Virus record (IMG/VR): IMGVR_UViG_2627854143_000002
DNA: 14,559 nt
Direction: 5' to 3' (one strand)
From: a virus
Lineage: Duplodnaviria > Heunggongvirae > Uroviricota > Caudoviricetes
The notes beneath the pieces are model-generated. The model saw only the letters and a list, made by a program, of their open reading frames with translations, made no database searches and had not been told where the DNA came from. Position numbers and translations under genes: made by a program. Shown here piece by piece: positions 3,083-14,559 of the stretch; position 1 is the first letter of the stretch; the number at the start of each line of letters is the position of its first letter.

Positions 3083-3417
3083 GATTTGCTCTCTTGGGTG
3101 CGGGCGGCGTCGAGGGCGCATTCCACCTCGTCTACATCTGGCGGCGGCTCATTGCCGCTGCGCCAGCGCTCACGTAGTTCAAGCGCGTACGTAGCCGCAT
3201 CGACATACCATGCTCGCTCCCGCAGCCAGCGATAGCGCTCTGCGCAGAGCTTGTCGTCATCCGTCACCTCGGAGCGCGGCTCCGGCTGGCTCGGATGGGG
3301 GGCGAGAATTGCTTCCAGTTCTTCCGCAAGCTTGTACTGGCAGGAATGTCGGGCCTCGTCTGCTGCGCGGCTGATCACCTGACATTCGCCGACCGTCAGC
3401 GCGTCGTTATTCGGCAT
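3079..3417 (-). CDS. Phage hypothetical protein with an AERYRWLR motif
   Basis: 112 aa. The 'AERYRWLR' motif recurs in early-region proteins of proteobacterial phages; overlaps both neighbours as in a coupled operon. Confidence 0.8.
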   Translation of the reverse strand: MPNNDALTVGECQVISRAADEARHSCQYKLAEELEAILAPHPSQPEPRSEVTDDDKLCAERYRWLRERAWYVDAATYALELRERWRSGNEPPPDVDEVECALDAARTQESKS

Positions 3418-3649
3418 GGTCGACTTCCCTCACTTCTTTGATGAAGTCGGCGGCATCCTCAGACGACTCGAAGAAAAATGCCTTATTCGTTCCGCCGTCG
3501 TAGACATGCGCCCATTTCTTCAGACTCGGCTCGTAAGCCTGCACGCTGTACTTCGGCTTGAGCGTGTTCATGTCAAGCCACGGATGAGTGCGCATTCTCC
3601 ATTCCGGGCGCACGCTGCTGCGCGCGATTCCAAGTTGCCTCTTAGCCAT
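3407..3649 (-). CDS. Phage hypothetical protein, 80 aa
   Basis: Tiles the operon with short overlaps on both sides; GAGG/GGAG-like RBS lies within the upstream gene. Confidence 0.7.
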   Translation of the reverse strand: MAKRQLGIARSSVRPEWRMRTHPWLDMNTLKPKYSVQAYEPSLKKWAHVYDGGTNKAFFFESSEDAADFIKEVREVDHAE

Positions 3650-3899
3650 GGCTGGCTCCCTCGGCAGTTGACTTGCCGCAAAACGGGCAGTAGCTGGAAA
3701 TGACCGGAATCAGCTTTCCGCGCGTGAATCCTTTCGCCTGCGCGACGATCTTGAACTCGGTCTTGTGGATCACGCGTATCGAATTGCCAGACATGGAGAA
3801 TCCGGCCGATTGGCAGTCGGCCGAAGCGTCCACGCCGAGTTCTTCGCTGTAGCGTTTGGCCAGTTTGATCTCGATCTCGCTAATGCAGATGCAGTTCAT
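3642..3899 (-). CDS. Small phage protein with CxC and YCPFCG motifs (probable zinc binding)
   Basis: 85 aa, 'MNCIC' and 'YCPFCGK'. ATGA overlap with the upstream gene. Confidence 0.8.
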   Translation of the reverse strand: MNCICISEIEIKLAKRYSEELGVDASADCQSAGFSMSGNSIRVIHKTEFKIVAQAKGFTRGKLIPVISSYCPFCGKSTAEGASHG

Positions 3900-5455
3900 G
3901 ATTGGTCGGCTCCATTGAGAAGCTCATTCGCGAAGCAAAAGAGCTTTGCAGCCATTGAGATTCGTTGGTCGGGTGACAAAGTCGTCGTCAAGTACGCTGC
4001 CCTAGTGGTGGGCGGGGCGAGATAGAGAAGGTATTCGCCTGGCTTCAGATCAAGCGCAGCCGCTTCCGGCGCAATGTCGATTGCGTGGCTCGTTGATCCG
4101 GCATCCGTGCTTCTAACGCGCATGTGCGCCACCGCCTCTCCCGCATCGGCGGGGGCGCTGACATCCTGAAGCGTTCCTGCCTTCAGCGCGCGGATGTTCT
4201 TCGCGATCCGAACAGCCTCGTCATTGCCGCCCTCGTCCGCGCCGACGAAATCGTGGAAGAAATCAGCGCACTCGTCGATCACCTGACACATGGCATCGAC
4301 GTGCTCCTGTACCGAGTAGCCGTCCTTCGTGCCGATTCGCTCGGCGATCCAGTGATAGCAGTCCGCCGCGATGCTCTGTTCAGTCTCGATCGGCTCGCGC
4401 GCCTCTGCCACCGCACCGCCGAACGCATCCCGGAACGCTTTCACCGAAATCGACACATGGCCGCCCTCGACCGACGTGGCCGCTGCGATCGCGTTGAATG
4501 TCTTCTGGTACGGGAACGCCTCTGCCGGTGCGTCGGCCTGCGCCCTTCGTGCGCCAAAGGTCGGCATACCTTCCTGCGCATCCCGCTGGCAGGCACACGG
4601 ACTCGTTCCGCTGTCGCCCTCGATCACCCCTTCGCCGTCGCAATGCGGGCATTCCGCCGCATGGGCCGGTGCGTCGGCCCGCGCGGGTTGCGGGGCGGCG
4701 TCGGTTACGGCAAGGAGCACAAAATCTCGCCATAGGGAAAGTTCCGGCGATGCAGGCTTGGGCTCGACTCGCAGGTACTTTTTTGCGAGACCGATCATCG
4801 CTTCGTCGTTCGCCCAACCGTCGCCTAGAGTATGGACATCGGCTGACAACGCTTGGAGGGCGGCGGTCACTCGCTCCGCAGCGGGCGATGCTGCCGCGCG
4901 GGCTTCTTGCCATGCATCCCGCAACCGCTCAACTGCACTGATTTCCGGAAAGCGATCACACCACGCCTCGAACGACGCTGTCCGCTCGTCGGCCGGCGCT
5001 GCCGACGGCTCGCCATCACCCGATTCGAGATAGAAGCACCCAGCGTCGTTGCACGCCTGCGCGGTAGTCGATCCGCAGCGCTTACACGCGCCGTCGGCCG
5101 GCGCTGCTGCGGGCAGCTCGACACGGAAGCCGCCAAACAGGTGCGCGACGAACTCGGTCAGGATGAATCGATCTTCGGCGTTCGGTTCGCGCGAATCGTT
5201 GTTGTCGCCGACGATTTCGAATGTCTCGATTGCAGCGAGGGCGTCCTGTGCCGTCAGCAGTGCGGGCTGCTCGACAGGAGATGCGGCGAGAAAATACATA
5301 CGCTTTCGCAGTTCGTATGCCTGGTCAGTGATTCTCGTTGCCAGCTTCTTATCGGTACGGCCGTGCGACAGCAGGCCAGCAGCCGTTACAACATCCATCA
5401 GAAACTGATTGATTCCCGTCAGCGCATCAGCGCGGCTCTGTTGTTGGTCGTTCAT
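3896..5455 (-). CDS. Modular, Ala/Pro-rich phage early protein, 519 aa
   Basis: Start MNDQQQSRADALT at 5455 with GAGG RBS; the track start at 5500 overlaps the upstream gene. Short modules (CKRC..C...C; CPHC...CAC) are separated by APAD-type linkers. Confidence 0.8.
   Translation of the reverse strand: MNDQQQSRADALTGINQFLMDVVTAAGLLSHGRTDKKLATRITDQAYELRKRMYFLAASPVEQPALLTAQDALAAIETFEIVGDNNDSREPNAEDRFILTEFVAHLFGGFRVELPAAAPADGACKRCGSTTAQACNDAGCFYLESGDGEPSAAPADERTASFEAWCDRFPEISAVERLRDAWQEARAAASPAAERVTAALQALSADVHTLGDGWANDEAMIGLAKKYLRVEPKPASPELSLWRDFVLLAVTDAAPQPARADAPAHAAECPHCDGEGVIEGDSGTSPCACQRDAQEGMPTFGARRAQADAPAEAFPYQKTFNAIAAATSVEGGHVSISVKAFRDAFGGAVAEAREPIETEQSIAADCYHWIAERIGTKDGYSVQEHVDAMCQVIDECADFFHDFVGADEGGNDEAVRIAKNIRALKAGTLQDVSAPADAGEAVAHMRVRSTDAGSTSHAIDIAPEAAALDLKPGEYLLYLAPPTTRAAYLTTTLSPDQRISMAAKLFCFANELLNGADQS
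4524..4684. repeat. Direct repeat pair (20 nt, 19/20 identical) encoding A(Q/R)ADAPA linkers
   Basis: GCCGGTGCGTCGGCCTGCGC at 4524-4543 and GCCGGTGCGTCGGCCCGCGC at 4665-4684. Confidence 0.85.
4987..5107. repeat. Perfect 16-nt direct repeat pair encoding AAPAD linkers
   Basis: CGTCGGCCGGCGCTGC at 4987-5002 and 5092-5107. Confidence 0.85.
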
Positions 5456-7811: not shown

Positions 7812-8624
7812 TTACTTGATCTGGACGAACGGGACGCTGCTCGAGCCCATGTACTGGGGGAGCTTGCCGTCCCATTTCTCGATCGCCATCTGTTGCAGGA
7901 TTTGGCTGTTCTCGCGTAGTGCTTTCGCTTTCACCTCGAGCGCTTCGGCCTCGCCCTTGGCGATCGCGACTTGCTTTGCCGCGTCCGCCTCGGCTGCACG
8001 CAGTTCGTTCTCCTTCTGCTGCGCGATCTGCGTCGCTGCGATCTTCCCGTTGATCGAGTTCATGACCTGCTCGGGGAGGCGCATCTGATTCACGAAATAG
8101 ACCTTCTCGACACTGATTCCGACCTTCGCGGCGTTCGCCTTTACCTCGTCCTCGACGCGCTGCTGTAGTGCCGCCTTGCCCCTGCCGTAGACGTCCTCGA
8201 CCGCCATCGACGCGCCAGCGAGATTCAGGGCGTCGCGCACGATCGCGCGCAGGTAGGCGCCCGTGATCTCATCGACTCCGCGCCGATACTTCTGGAACAC
8301 CTTGGGCGCGTTCTCACGCGGGATCGCGTAGCTGACGCCGATGTCGGTGTTGACCGACAACCCCTCCACCGTCTGGAACGTGAACGACTCGTCGGACTTG
8401 CCAGCTTTGTCCCACACGTAGGACTGCGTGAACGTTGGGAAGATGAACATGTCGACGTTGGGCCCGTTGAAGTAGCGGCCGGGGCCTTTCACCTCGACGT
8501 TGACGCCGCGGTCGTCGCCGTAGCGTTGCACCTTCACACCGACGTAGCCGGCCGGGACGTTATCGCAGCCGGCCGCGAGGAACATCGTCGGCGCGAGGAT
8601 CAGAATCAGAAACAGGCGTTTCAC
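7812..8624 (-). CDS. SPFH/Band-7 (prohibitin/HflK/HflC-like) lipoprotein, 270 aa
   Basis: GTG 8624 with AAGGAG RBS. Signal peptide ends in lipobox LAAG-C. SPFH core 'VPAGYVGVKV...FQTVEGLSVNTDIGVSY...LRAIVRDAL...GISVEKV' plus a C-terminal coiled coil 'AAEADAAKQVAIAKGEAEA...IEKWDGKLP'. Confidence 0.92.
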   Translation of the reverse strand: MKRLFLILILAPTMFLAAGCDNVPAGYVGVKVQRYGDDRGVNVEVKGPGRYFNGPNVDMFIFPTFTQSYVWDKAGKSDESFTFQTVEGLSVNTDIGVSYAIPRENAPKVFQKYRRGVDEITGAYLRAIVRDALNLAGASMAVEDVYGRGKAALQQRVEDEVKANAAKVGISVEKVYFVNQMRLPEQVMNSINGKIAATQIAQQKENELRAAEADAAKQVAIAKGEAEALEVKAKALRENSQILQQMAIEKWDGKLPQYMGSSSVPFVQIK

Positions 8625-8803
8625 TTGGTCTCCTTGAAATGAGGGGGGATGAATTTCACAAAGGCGGCGGCATATGCCAGCCACACGAACGGCACGGCGA
8701 GCAGGGTGATGCTGCTGTCCTGATTCACCAGCCACGGGGTGACGATCGACAGCAGCACGAGAAACAGCGCGGCCGCGACGATGAGCTTCGAAGCGGTTTT
8801 GAT
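8621..8803 (-). CDS. Small two-TM membrane protein (60 aa) with an ATC at the expected start position (non-canonical start or inactivated gene)
   Basis: GGAG-ATACCA-ATC-AAA-ACC... reads (M)KTASKLIVAAALFLVLLSIVTPWLVNQDSSITLLAVPFVWLAYAAAFVKFIPPHFKETK*. Its stop overlaps the SPFH GTG. No ATG/GTG/TTG lies between the in-frame stop at 8924-8926 and the ATC. Confidence 0.65.
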   Translation of the reverse strand: MKTASKLIVAAALFLVLLSIVTPWLVNQDSSITLLAVPFVWLAYAAAFVKFIPPHFKETK

Positions 8804-8816
8804 TGGTATCTCCGGT

Positions 8817-8852
8817 AAAAAATGGCGGGGCGCACATACGGGCCGCCCCGCC
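8817..8852 (-). terminator. Intrinsic terminator
   Basis: Minus strand reads GGCGGGGCG-GCCCGTATGTG-CGCCCCGCC-A-TTTTTT (9-bp stem). Confidence 0.8.
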
Positions 8853-10943: not shown

Positions 10944-11369
10944 TGGATCTCCTTTCGAAGGGGCACGATCGCGAGCCTCGTTTCCCCTCATGATTTAGTA
11001 GTCCGAATTCAATACAACGATCAGGGCGTAACACCAATCGATCTGCTTCCTTGTCAGTTTTCATGGGATGGGGCCACTGCCGCGACTTCCGGCTTCGCTT
11101 TCCCCTCCGAACGACAATCCGGCTATCTCGCGAACCGCCACGTGCGTCGCGACCAACTCCGGCGTCCTCTGGCTCCCTCGCCGCGGCCAGACCATGTCCG
11201 CATCGGCAGGACCCCATCTCATGAAAGCTGAGTGGTGTCGGGCGCTACCCCGTTTCTCGGCTACACCGTAGAGCCGGCCGGTTGCTCCCTCGCGGGTCCC
11301 GGCGCGCTAGCACTCTTAAAGATCGACCGCTTCGGCGGCGGCGCAGCGTTCAGTGCCGCGCTGGATCAA

Positions 11370-11397
11370 ACTATACGCGAATGAATGGAAAAGGCAA
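11370..11397 (-). promoter_or_regulatory. PL-like early leftward promoter
   Basis: Minus strand TTGCCT(11397-11392)-N16-TATAGT(11375-11370), overlapped by an operator. Confidence 0.7.
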
Positions 11398-11422
11398 GAG
11401 AAATCTATTCTCGAATGAATGG
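11371..11422. promoter_or_regulatory. OL: two 18-bp operators
   Basis: CTATACGCGAATGAATGG (11371-11388) and CTATTCTCGAATGAATGG (11405-11422), 16/18 identical; the same motif occurs twice between cI and cro. Confidence 0.8.
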
Positions 11423-11918: not shown

Positions 11919-12425
11919 TCACTTCACGGCCTTGATTGGGTTCTTTTTCCAACTCTCAGCGAGTTGCTCGAGCTCTTGGAAGAACGTGTCTTTTCCCTCG
12001 ATGCGCCGCACTTCGTGGATGAAGCCGCGGGCTGAATTCCATACTTTGAGGACGTTCGAGCACTGCATTCGTTTGTAGATCTTTTCGTCGAATGCCCCTA
12101 GCCGAATTCCGAGTGCGATGAACTCGTGGTTGTTGAGGACCTTGAGAATCGCATCGCGTTCGCTACTATGCTGCTTCACGAAGTCGCTGAACTGTGAGTT
12201 CTCACGATGAAGCCTGAAGACTAAGGCGGTCGCATCGAGCAACTCCTTGTCAGTCTTCTGGTGAATCATCAGGTCAATCAGGGCTTTGGTTCTGTTTTGT
12301 TTTCCGTTGTAGTAGATGACGGCAACACCAGCGAGCGCGGAAATTAAAAAGGCTCCTGTTTGTATCCAGAAGCCCCAAGTTTCCCCAAGCCAGCCGACCG
12401 TCTTTGCGATCTGCTGGCACTCCAT
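11919..12425 (-). CDS. DUF4760-like membrane-anchored protein, 168 aa
   Basis: N-terminal TM 'WGFWIQTGAFLISALAGVAVIYY'. Core 'LNNHEFIALGIRLGAFDEKIYKRM...VWNSARGFIHEVR...FFQELEQLAESW' matches my recollection of the DUF4760 consensus. Confidence 0.8.
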   Translation of the reverse strand: MECQQIAKTVGWLGETWGFWIQTGAFLISALAGVAVIYYNGKQNRTKALIDLMIHQKTDKELLDATALVFRLHRENSQFSDFVKQHSSERDAILKVLNNHEFIALGIRLGAFDEKIYKRMQCSNVLKVWNSARGFIHEVRRIEGKDTFFQELEQLAESWKKNPIKAVK

Positions 12426-12461: not shown

Positions 12462-12746
12462 GGTGATTCCCCCGTGGTTAGAGTTGTGGATTCCTTGGTG
12501 GCGATCGCACTGTACTGACCCAGTAATAACATGATTACAAAGCCATCAACTTCAAGTGCATCCTTCGTCGGAAGGTGATGGCATTGTACGTCAGATCGTC
12601 AGGCAATGTGTTACGTAGTGATACGGAGTGAGACGAACTGACACGTTGCAGGAACCTGTACGAAATTGGGGTACGCCCCGGCCAATGATTGAAATCTCAG
12701 GCCGAATCGTCGGCCGCATGGACATCGTATACGCTGCCTAACATAG

Positions 12747-12776
12747 TTGAAAGCTCCCCAATTCTGAGGCTAAACT
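12747..12776 (+). promoter_or_regulatory. Sigma70-type promoter adjacent to a LexA box
   Basis: TTGAAA(12747-52)-N18-TAAACT(12771-76). Confidence 0.6.
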
Positions 12777-12777
12777 A

Positions 12778-12793
12778 CTGTACATGCATACAG
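12778..12793. promoter_or_regulatory. LexA (SOS) box
   Basis: CTGT-ACATGCAT-ACAG within TACTGTACATGCATACAGTG: a perfect CTGT-N8-ACAG with an alternating spacer, 40 nt before ATG 12834. Confidence 0.9.
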
Positions 12794-12833
12794 TGTTCTA
12801 AGCAGGTAAGAGGGGGCTAGGGTGGAACGAGAG

Positions 12834-13154
12834 ATGAGCGCAGGGGGGCTGCGGTGCCGGCCGGGGGACTTGGCCAGGGTGGTGGACGCATGGAATCCTG
12901 CCTTGGTCGGCCGGATCGTGCTGATAAAGATGGCCCACTCCGAAACAGAGTGGGTTGTGACGTTGTTGGGCGAGCCTGGCGTAACGCTAACGAAAAACAG
13001 AACGCGGATGGTCGCAAGTAATTCGGCACTGGCCTACGATTCGGCGCTGGAGCCGATTCGTGCCGTTGAGGTCGGCATCGCCGACCAAATTACGGCTGGA
13101 GATGCGGAAGGTTACCGTCGTCGTCAGAGTTGTGCTGCGCCGGTATCGATCTAA
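12834..13154 (+). CDS. SOS-regulated hypothetical protein, candidate antirepressor, 106 aa
   Basis: MSAGGLRCRPGDLARVVDAWNPALVGRIVLI... has a beta-rich N-terminus. It lies downstream of the LexA box and overlaps the cI 3' end by 65 nt. GTG 12822 is an alternative start. Confidence 0.7.
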   Translation: MSAGGLRCRPGDLARVVDAWNPALVGRIVLIKMAHSETEWVVTLLGEPGVTLTKNRTRMVASNSALAYDSALEPIRAVEVGIADQITAGDAEGYRRRQSCAAPVSI

Positions 13155-13527
13155 GCAACGTTGCTACGGCGGCGAACACCTCTTCTGAGACGCCGGCGTC
13201 ATTGGCTCGCTTGATCTCCGAAATCAATCTCTGCACGTGAAGCGGAAGCGCGCGTGGTGCTTCCGCCGCACGATCATGTGTCTGAGGGCTATACAGCTCC
13301 GCCACGAACTTCGGGCCGCGCTCGGTAAGAAGCCACTCGCACGTCACTCCAAACGGGATTGCCAATGCCGCCAGAGTTTCCATCTCAGGCACTGAGCCGC
13401 CCCGCAAAATGCGGCTGATCGTTGGCTGCGGTACCCCAGTGTCGCGTGAAAGCTTGCTCTGCCCGCGTTCCCCGTAGTTGGGATGGGCATGCAGCAGCTC
13501 TCTCAATCGGTCACCGACTTTTTTCAT
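13090..13527 (-). CDS. cI: CI-like XRE repressor without an S24 peptidase domain, 145 aa
   Basis: HTH 'QSKLSRDTGVPQPTISRILRG...TLAALAIPFGVTCEWLL'; divergent from cro. The ~70-aa C-terminal part shows no S24 'GDSM'-type motif and is too short for that domain. ATG 13527 preferred because 13557 lies in the -35 box. Confidence 0.88.
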   Translation of the reverse strand: MKKVGDRLRELLHAHPNYGERGQSKLSRDTGVPQPTISRILRGGSVPEMETLAALAIPFGVTCEWLLTERGPKFVAELYSPQTHDRAAEAPRALPLHVQRLISEIKRANDAGVSEEVFAAVATLLRSIPAQHNSDDDGNLPHLQP

Positions 13528-13533
13528 GGCGTG

Positions 13534-13562
13534 ACTATGCGTCAATGAATAGGCCATATCAA
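13534..13562 (-). promoter_or_regulatory. PRM-like promoter for cI (leaderless)
   Basis: Minus strand TTGATA(13562-57)-N17-CATAGT(13539-34)-N6-ATG(13527). Confidence 0.7.
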
Positions 13563-13606
13563 CAAATCACTCGATCGCGCATTGACAATTAGTCATTCGC
13601 GTATAG
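13535..13606. promoter_or_regulatory. OR: two 18-bp operators
   Basis: CTATGCGTCAATGAATAG (13535-13552, plus) and CTATACGCGAATGACTAA (13606-13589, minus); the latter has its first 14 nt identical to OL1. Confidence 0.75.
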
Positions 13607-13609
13607 AAT
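13582..13609 (+). promoter_or_regulatory. PR-like promoter for cro
   Basis: TTGACA(13582-87)-N16-TAGAAT(13604-09)-N6-ATG(13616). Confidence 0.8.
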
Positions 13610-13615
13610 GTCCGC

Positions 13616-13822
13616 ATGGACATGCCAACTACTGCCACCGCGCTTCTCAGCGACATCAAGGCCCAGCGAGACTTGAGCGAAGTCGCGATCGCGCGTCGTC
13701 TCCAGATTTCCCAGCCGACGGTCAATCGAATCCTGCGAGGGAAATCGGACTGCAAGAGCAGTACGTTTGTGGCGATACAAGCATGGTGGAAAGAGCTCGC
13801 CCAACAAAAGGAGACCGCATGA
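13616..13822 (+). CDS. cro: Cro-like HTH protein, 68 aa
   Basis: 'LSEVAIARRLQISQPTVNRILRG'. The recognition helix QPTVNRI closely resembles QPTISRI of CI. Confidence 0.88.
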   Translation: MDMPTTATALLSDIKAQRDLSEVAIARRLQISQPTVNRILRGKSDCKSSTFVAIQAWWKELAQQKETA

Positions 13823-14358: not shown

Positions 14359-14559
14359 ATGAACATCATCGACGCCGCATACGCGGTTGTTCACGATTAC
14401 CCGGGCGGCAGTGAGTCGCTCGCGCCGCGTCTCGGTATGTCGGCGGCGGTGCTGCGGAACAAGGTGAACCCGAACAACGCTACGCATCACCTCGGGCTCG
14501 CTGACGCGGTTCGCGCGACGGACGTGACCAACGACGATCGGATGCTCGAAGCGTGGGCA
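14359..14559 (+). CDS. cII: Phage regulatory protein CII (CP76/186-CII-like), partial, runs off the window
   Basis: GAGGA RBS; MNIIDAAYAVVHDYPGGSESLAPRLGMSAAVLRNKVNPNNATHHLGLADAVRATDVTNDDRMLEAWA shows the 'LA..LG.S...LRNK.NP....HHL' signature. Not in the ORF track. Confidence 0.88.
   Translation, partial: MNIIDAAYAVVHDYPGGSESLAPRLGMSAAVLRNKVNPNNATHHLGLADAVRATDVTNDDRMLEAWA

Follow-up and report, generated by a model that had tools for sequence, protein, structure and literature searches.

A LexA-boxed small gene convergent with a short cI gene, a candidate antirepressor family of Burkholderia prophages

Introduction

How can a prophage respond to DNA damage when its repressor carries no autoprotease domain? 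This question is raised by a stretch of 14,559 nucleotides (nt), in the following called the window, which corresponds to positions 53740–68298 of the 68-kb IMG/VR virus record IMGVR_UViG_2627854143_000002. It covers the left arm of a lambdoid Burkholderia prophage together with its immunity region, and Bcep176 and phiE125 (genus Stanholtvirus) are relatives of this prophage. Here, a small plus-strand gene preceded by a putative LexA operator lies tail to tail with the cI repressor gene. An earlier sequence-only reading of this DNA suggested that the small gene encodes an antirepressor, by which the SOS response would induce the prophage. Following up this proposal, we found that the LexA box, the small protein and a C-terminal module of the repressor are strictly associated and that the gene is under selection at the protein level. 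We favor, with a probability of roughly 55%, a new family of LexA-controlled antirepressors that would act by contacting the C-terminal module of CI.

LexA-controlled antirepressors of repressors that are not cleaved have been described before, among them 186 Tum, N15 AntC and Gifsy GfoA/GftA (PMC3121763). The regulatory logic is already known, and what would be new is the protein family together with the modular architecture.

The repressor and the small gene

The cI gene is located on the minus strand at 13090–13527, encoding 145 amino acids (aa) from ATG 13527, or extends to ATG 13557, yielding 155 aa. The predicted -10 element of PRM at 13539–13534 places the transcriptional start approximately at ATG 13527, about 7 nt after the -10; the shorter form would fit a leaderless PRM message, and the 145-aa reading appears reasonable. 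The N-terminal DNA-binding domain belongs to the helix-turn-helix (HTH) family HTH_3 (13294–13518, minus strand; PF01381, E-value 3.7e-8) and corresponds to helices between residues 14 and 88 in the AlphaFold model. This model is all-helical throughout, with the five helices of the HTH domain connected by a linker to a two-helix hairpin (residues 106–136), after which comes a disordered acidic tail. Hairpin and Pro-containing acidic tail together form the C-terminal module (13093–13248, minus strand; approximately residues 104–155 of the 155-aa form). When the C-terminal 60 aa were compared to a large protein collection, only close relatives were retrieved.

No Peptidase_S24 domain was detected in CI, for which Pfam returned HTH families only, and matches to PF00717, ANT or Bro-N were absent from the entire 68-kb record. 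Pfam, the structural model and the record-wide scan hence agree with the initial description of CI as a 145-aa protein without an S24 autoprotease. It also follows that no alternative SOS input of these kinds is visible in the record.

The candidate antirepressor gene occupies 12822–13154 on the plus strand, with a TAA stop at 13154, and encodes 110 aa if translated from GTG 12822 or 106 aa from ATG 12834. The in-frame GTG lies 5 nt past a GA-rich Shine-Dalgarno-like sequence (AAGAGGGGG, 12808–12816, plus strand), which would serve it and whose place is taken by a purine-rich block in related loci. The same codon is ATG or GTG in the relatives, whereas the position of ATG 12834 is occupied by ACG or CTG. 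Because of the Shine-Dalgarno spacing and the conservation of this start codon but not of ATG 12834, GTG 12822 is the more likely start and the protein probably has 110 rather than 106 residues. The gene behind the box and its 65-nt overlap with cI (13090–13154, on opposite strands) were therefore correctly recognized in the sequence-only reading, but the start of its 106-aa version is not the one favored by the comparison. Read on the minus strand, the overlap specifies the acidic ...PHLQP end of CI, which is conserved; read on the plus strand, it specifies the tail of the small protein, which is not.

That the small gene is translated is suggested by its pattern of substitutions. Within the closest clade, differences at the first, second and third codon positions numbered 797, 349 and 2329 in the frame of the small gene, and 2204 codon changes were synonymous versus 748 non-synonymous; the two other frames showed the opposite pattern. 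Judged by these codon comparisons, the gene is real and under purifying selection at the protein level. The alignment delineates a conserved core spanning residues 5–78 of the 106-aa form (approximately 12846–13067) with the motif LRC(R/K)PGDLA, an invariant Trp40 and a D..LEP motif. From about position 13068 onward follows a variable tail that is predicted to be disordered.

The SOS promoter and its LexA box

A consensus scan identified a sigma-70-like promoter upstream of the small gene on the plus strand (12747–12776), consisting of the -35 element TTGAAA (12747–12752), an 18-nt spacer and the -10 element TAAACT (12771–12776). The putative LexA operator has its CTGT-N8-ACAG core at 12778–12793, within a 20-nt site (12776–12795) that agrees with TACTGT-N8-ACAGTA at 19 of 20 positions. 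This site overlaps the final base of the -10 element as well as the expected transcription start, and the core begins at the second base past the -10.

As initially claimed, a perfect box starts 2 nt after the -10 element and is the sole exact one in the window, which we reproduced by pattern scan and shuffling. The expectation from shuffled sequences was 0.13 occurrences, with at least one in 25 of 200 shuffles, and boxes with one mismatch (three in the window) are at chance level. Taken by itself, the lone box in 14.6 kb is weakly significant. It is more than chance because the promoter-plus-box arrangement recurs in front of the homologous gene in 80 of 99 independent loci, compared to only 11 other exact boxes across the 533 kb that these loci span.

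CTGT-N8-ACAG is the LexA motif of beta- and gammaproteobacteria (PMC3323433), and this part of the proposal gains further support from the lexA gene of Burkholderia itself. Directly before the lexA start codon, two boxes of this kind are present in a B. seminalis genome that is also the source of a homolog locus. In this 8-Mb genome the extended motif is rare, with about 12 sites, and the reversed control pattern has none. The motif thus appears to be a genuine LexA site type for this host group, and LexA would be expected to occupy 12776–12795.

Two further boxes were noticed in the record. One, a good LexA box at record positions 14856–14871 (L103:4557–4572) beyond the window, lies between a minus-strand gene for an SOS response-associated peptidase (SRAP, PF02586) and a divergent open reading frame (ORF) of 213 aa that matches no family. 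This region is about 40 kb away from the immunity region and may represent host DNA or another element. An additional, A/T-rich box is found at record position 11294.

Conservation of box, small gene and convergent repressor

The 99 loci compared here stem from three phage records, 15 bacterial genomes (Pandoraea, Burkholderia and Paraburkholderia) and 80 IMG/VR contigs, plus the window. A locus was counted as boxed if an exact box was present at most 200 nt upstream of the small gene. When 65 distinct upstream sequences were aligned on the box, the elements TTGAAA, approximately 18 nt, and TAAACT-A-CTGT stayed in register while their flanks drifted.

Each of the 80 boxed loci contains a short repressor-like gene on the minus strand that runs toward the small gene and overlaps its 3′ end by 15 to 110 nt, such that box and short CI co-occur without exception. 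By their N-termini, at least 12 types of these partner repressors can be told apart, some assigned to HTH_3 and some without a Pfam match. Among 16 representatives, covering 12 of 13 repressor types (type T9 was left out as a mis-called frame), none had a Peptidase_S24 domain, and all matched HTH families or no Pfam entry.

Despite these varied N-termini, the last approximately 50 residues of the repressors come in about three related flavors. The first, found in the window, reads ...AD.AG...F...LL..IP...DDGDLPHLQP; the second, mostly from Pandoraea, ...AD.AGEP..F..LRLLP..EPVGRLNP; and the third, from phiE125 and KS9, GWE.LD..RA.VEAFI.GLLA...DDRP.G. A hidden Markov model (HMM) of this module gave exactly one convergent match per locus in 80 of 80 boxed loci, compared to one of the 19 loci lacking the box. 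A search of phage records with the C-terminal part of the repressor, which likewise retrieved close relatives only, agrees with this association, since all 15 matched records carry the small gene adjacent to it, though these records are not an independent sample.

Both genes have true homologs in three Burkholderia phages, where box, promoter and 3′ overlap are retained as well: gp40/gp41 in KS9, an unannotated ORF and gp52 in phiE125, and gp21/gp20 in Bcep176. KS9 gp41, the partner in one of these cassettes, is an experimentally identified repressor, going by its GenBank annotation and by the title of a 2010 report by Lynch et al.; its inactivation reportedly makes KS9 lytic. The small gene itself is annotated as hypothetical in KS9 and Bcep176 and is unannotated in phiE125, vB_E192a, vB_PL1, PhiBt-E264.1 and phiBt-TXDOH. 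In phiE125 it encodes 109 aa from a TTG start (L002:2477–2806; NC_003309, approximately 40901–41230), and the annotated 'gp51' coding sequence (L002:2323–2511), which spans the LexA box and the promoter, is probably a mis-call. In the literature on Burkholderia phages, we found no description of the small gene or of the cassette.

The convergent arrangement would also suit a device in which the SOS promoter acts mainly by RNA, through collision with transcription from PRM, antisense transcription over the 3′ end of cI, and read-through into cro that bypasses CI, with the protein being accessory or serving another role. The 3′ overlap in every boxed locus speaks for this explanation, as does the position of cro in the window, on the strand of the SOS promoter and with no plus-strand terminator-like site predicted between 12776 and 13616. 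A protein core under purifying selection would, however, be needless for an RNA-only device, and homologs exist without a convergent repressor. In 17 of 60 loci, moreover, plus-strand terminator-like hairpins occur within the repressor region, so that read-through is not assured. We therefore regard a mainly RNA-based function as unlikely and RNA-level interference, the second route put forward in the sequence-only reading, as a possible addition to the protein route. In the opposite direction, a minus-strand hairpin within the small gene (12954–12934) was considered as a terminator for cI and rejected because it is not conserved, a comparable hairpin being present in 4 of 60 loci.

Co-inheritance of the small protein and the repressor module

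Pairs of loci with different N-terminal types of the repressor were used to compare the inheritance of the individual parts. The identity of the small-protein core correlated with the identity of the last 50 aa of the repressor (Spearman coefficient 0.65) but not appreciably with that of its DNA-binding part (0.10). In the most extreme pair (L068 and L065), the cores are 97% and the repressor C-termini 72% identical, while the N-termini share 6%. Likewise, the small protein closest to that of the window (L032) is 80% identical over 92 aa, and the repressors next to them can be aligned over no more than the final 45 residues. A maximum-likelihood tree of the small-protein core splits by module flavor, with the N-terminal types intermixed within the clades.

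These data indicate that box, small gene and C-terminal module of the repressor are inherited as a unit. Read in this way, the comparisons tell us that DNA-binding domains are swapped repeatedly onto that unit. Neither the module nor the box-less copies in satellite-like elements were part of the sequence-only reading.

The small protein resembles no known antirepressor

Neither the window protein nor 49 members of its family matched any Pfam entry, including ANT (PF03374), Bro-N (PF02498) and KilAC-type domains. A profile of the 49 sequences showed no similarity to 186 Tum, its DinI-like half included (hhalign probability 0.1%, E-value 0.63). The initial impression that the protein resembles none of the known antirepressors is thereby borne out. 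In the PHROG database, the window protein had no match at an E-value of 0.01, and 11 of the 49 family members matched the uncharacterized phrog_2529 (best E-value 2.8e-7).

The family comprises 54 cluster representatives at 50% identity according to an exhaustive HMMER search. A word-indexed search returned 71 proteins, among which all named ones are hypothetical proteins from Burkholderia. A tblastn search of 50,697 phage records with the window protein gave matches in Burkholderia phages only, and a feature search of the ESM Atlas led to unnamed clusters only. Three longer database entries (P0106, P0048 and P0012) were considered as possible fusion proteins and rejected, as their ORF calls are over-extended into the promoter region.

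AlphaFold predicted a seven-strand small barrel, with a predicted local distance difference test (pLDDT) score above 90 for residues 11–70, followed by a disordered tail. In a Foldseek search of the PDB, the best matches were weak (E-values 0.01–0.07, TM-scores 0.4–0.5) and led to NusG/Spt5 KOW domains, ribosomal L24-type proteins and NdhS. The AlphaFold database clusters and BFVD mostly returned uncharacterized small barrels, phage proteins among them. HMM and structure searches together thus placed the protein in no Pfam family and pointed weakly to an SH3/KOW-like small beta-barrel as its predicted fold.

A barrel with a flexible tail, facing a repressor with a conserved extreme C-terminus, resembles adaptor-degron pairs such as that of SspB. 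It is therefore conceivable that the barrel grips the C-terminal tail of CI and that the disordered tail of the small protein hands CI over to a host AAA+ protease. Since this tail is unconserved, there is no shared motif that could dock to a protease, and we consider a role as proteolysis adaptor, instead of as a stoichiometric blocker, the least probable of the alternatives discussed here.

Homologs without a LexA box

Of the 19 homologs lacking a LexA box, 18 have neither the module nor an adjacent convergent repressor. These 18 are located inside plus-strand operons of small uncharacterized genes and are apparently translationally coupled to the respective upstream gene. Many of the box-less homologs reside in proviruses of 12–16 kb that encode an HK97-type capsid protein. 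Within the group L040–L052, in which the homologs are 58–68% identical, an HK97-type capsid frame of about 637 aa was present in each of the five loci tested (L040, L045, L049, L051 and L052). Judged by their gene content, these small box-less proviruses look like capsid-forming satellites, and a homolog carried by a satellite could serve as an inducer of helper prophages. L024 (IMGVR_UViG_2791355346_000007) is the closest box-less case: it retains the convergent repressor with its module, and its small protein shows 81% identity, but other sequence has taken the place of the upstream region, and no LexA box is left. This locus may represent a natural non-inducible variant.

The box-less copies show that the protein can work away from a cis-linked repressor, which fits a trans-acting antirepressor and also a function unrelated to repression. 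The second option could be realized by an SOS-induced accessory protein, such as a division inhibitor, a DinI-like modulator of RecA or LexA, or an exclusion protein, encoded in a permissive slot after cI in the manner of lambda rexAB. Besides the copies in other operons, the missing similarity to antirepressors and the SH3/KOW-like barrel, a generic binding fold, are compatible with such a protein. A free-standing gene would, in contrast, not be expected to show the strict association with the module (80 of 80 versus 1 of 19 loci), nor protein clades that match the module flavors, and these phages would be left without a visible route from DNA damage to derepression. We judge this alternative to be improbable, to about the same degree as a mainly RNA-based function.

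A model for SOS induction

The antirepressor reading suggests the following sequence of events. In the lysogen, host LexA bound to 12776–12795 would block the promoter at 12747–12776. Upon DNA damage, LexA would be cleaved and the SOS promoter fire, giving rise to a protein of approximately 110 aa with an SH3/KOW-like barrel core and a disordered tail. This protein would bind the two-helix hairpin and acidic Pro-containing tail that form the C-terminal module of CI. The module is probably the element for dimerization and cooperativity, and its acidic Pro-containing tail appears suited to an SH3-like barrel. Binding would break dimerization or cooperativity of CI, which would then leave OR and OL and allow PR and PL to fire. 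The same transcript would run antisense through cI and, if unterminated, in sense orientation into cro, which may reinforce the switch. Comparative genomics supports this interpretation well, whereas LexA binding at the site, contact between the two proteins, release of CI from its operators, the requirement of the gene for induction and any effect of the RNA are inferred.

Several points weigh against this model. The p-values belonging to the Spearman coefficients of 0.65 and 0.10 are inflated, as related sequences are not independent. Physical linkage alone could lead to co-inheritance, with the coding regions overlapping, and the nearest site at which recombination is tolerated may simply be the repressor's disordered linker. 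With 19 of 99 homologs box-less and 18 of these lacking an adjacent repressor, the protein is not tied to the repressor context. The predicted SH3/KOW-like fold carries no functional label and is unlike that of any known antirepressor. Recovery of many cassette-carrying phages after treatment with mitomycin C (PMC12860723) speaks for the model but does not tie induction to the small gene.

More tentatively, the module of about 50 aa might be a dedicated receiver domain. Together with the LexA promoter and the small protein it might constitute a portable cassette that recombination has joined to at least 12 unrelated DNA-binding domains, a functional counterpart of the S24 domain in which the signal arrives via a second protein. 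The box-less copies might then be satellite weapons that derepress helpers with a matching module. The derepression of P2 by the epsilon protein of P4 provides a parallel to the satellite part of this idea, which as a whole we consider clearly less likely than the antirepressor reading itself.

Comparison to known systems

The closest parallels are LexA-controlled antirepressors. For 186 Tum, a LexA box likewise covers the -10 element of a dedicated promoter (p95), and Tum acts on a CI without an autocleavage domain (PMC3121763; record annotation). Tum differs by its length of 146 aa, its DinI-like second half and the position of its gene at the far end of the genome, unlike the tail-to-tail arrangement with cI in the window. 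To our knowledge, no conserved receiver module across repressor types has been described for Tum.

Small LexA-controlled proteins directed against short uncleaved repressors are also found in Salmonella, namely GfoA, GftA and GfhA of Gifsy-1/-2/-3 and FsoA of Fels-1 (PMC3121763), and a single antirepressor may target repressors of more than one type (PMC3121763). In contrast to the gene studied here, the Gifsy genes belong to an operon that starts with a dinI homologue and is located about 1.3 kb past the replication genes (PMC3121763), and they show no convergent overlap; the cassette in the window has no link to a dinI homologue. N15 AntC resembles the candidate in being an antirepressor of the SOS regulon, and induction of the prophage requires it (cited in PMC3121763). 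It is set apart by the phage-wide tblastn search, in which the window protein had no match in N15. AntC is encoded in a separate immunity region.

The modules of a transcription factor and a small ORF (TF-smORF modules) in plasmid-like phages of Vibrio and Aeromonas, including those of the Qtip type, are alike in that tiny proteins without a family inactivate their own cI without proteolysis and with strict cognate specificity (PMC10432266). There, however, a phage transcription factor is the trigger, the response is SOS-independent and the cI is cleavable (PMC10432266), while in the window the trigger would be LexA and CI is non-cleavable.

If the antirepressor reading is correct, it would account for the sensing of DNA damage by a large group of temperate phages whose repressors are not cleavable. 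This group, from Burkholderia, Pandoraea and Paraburkholderia, includes phiE125, KS9, Bcep176, Magia and the prophage of the model strain B. thailandensis E264. The family would be structurally new among antirepressors, and it would offer one of the few instances where genomes reveal which surface of a repressor is targeted, namely a conserved C-terminal module common to many immunity types. Cross-induction between co-resident prophages and induction of helpers by satellites would become testable questions. From a practical point of view, these phages are candidates to be combined with fluoroquinolones in phage therapy directed at the B. cepacia complex, an application whose outcome hinges on the control of induction.

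Organization of the immunity region

The remaining features of the window follow a lambdoid plan. The integrase gene (1–1254) is followed by a long block of early-left genes on the minus strand and by the OL-like operator copies at 11371–11384 and 11405–11418. The switch region at 13534–13609 harbors the divergent predicted promoters PRM (minus strand; -35 at 13562–13557, -10 at 13539–13534) and PR (plus strand; -35 at 13582–13587, -10 at 13604–13609). Copies of a 14-nt motif of the CTATACGCGAATGA type are present here at 13535–13548 and 13593–13606, matching the two OL copies, and the copy at 11371 is the exact reverse complement of that at 13593. Judged by their placement at the predicted PL and PRM/PR, the four copies are likely CI operators.

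Downstream of PR, a cro-like HTH gene (13616–13822) lies on the plus strand, the same as that of the SOS promoter, and the gene for CII (CP76) begins at 14359. The ATG of the cro-like gene at 13616 is located 7 nt past the -10 element of PR, apparently allowing translation from a leaderless mRNA. An exact 12-nt direct repeat (CCGCATGGACAT) occurs at 12714–12725, just upstream of the -35 element of the SOS promoter, and at 13612–13623 over the cro start codon; it may be a recombination scar of module exchange, or chance (about 0.2 expected).

Between OL and the cI cassette, a minus-strand gene with a DUF4760 domain (phrog_2284; 11919–12425) is a candidate for an accessory or defense gene expressed in the lysogen. 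Its place is equivalent to the rexAB slot of lambda. The early-left region additionally contains a gene for an SPFH/Band_7 protein of 341 aa (7812–8837, minus strand), an unusual cargo for a phage. In Bcep176, five extra minus-strand genes, gp19–gp15, one of them with a DUF2513 domain, lie between gp20, the cI homolog, and cII (3244–5025 of its locus L001). They occupy the slot of the OR/cro region of the window, and the switch of Bcep176 must therefore be organized in another way.

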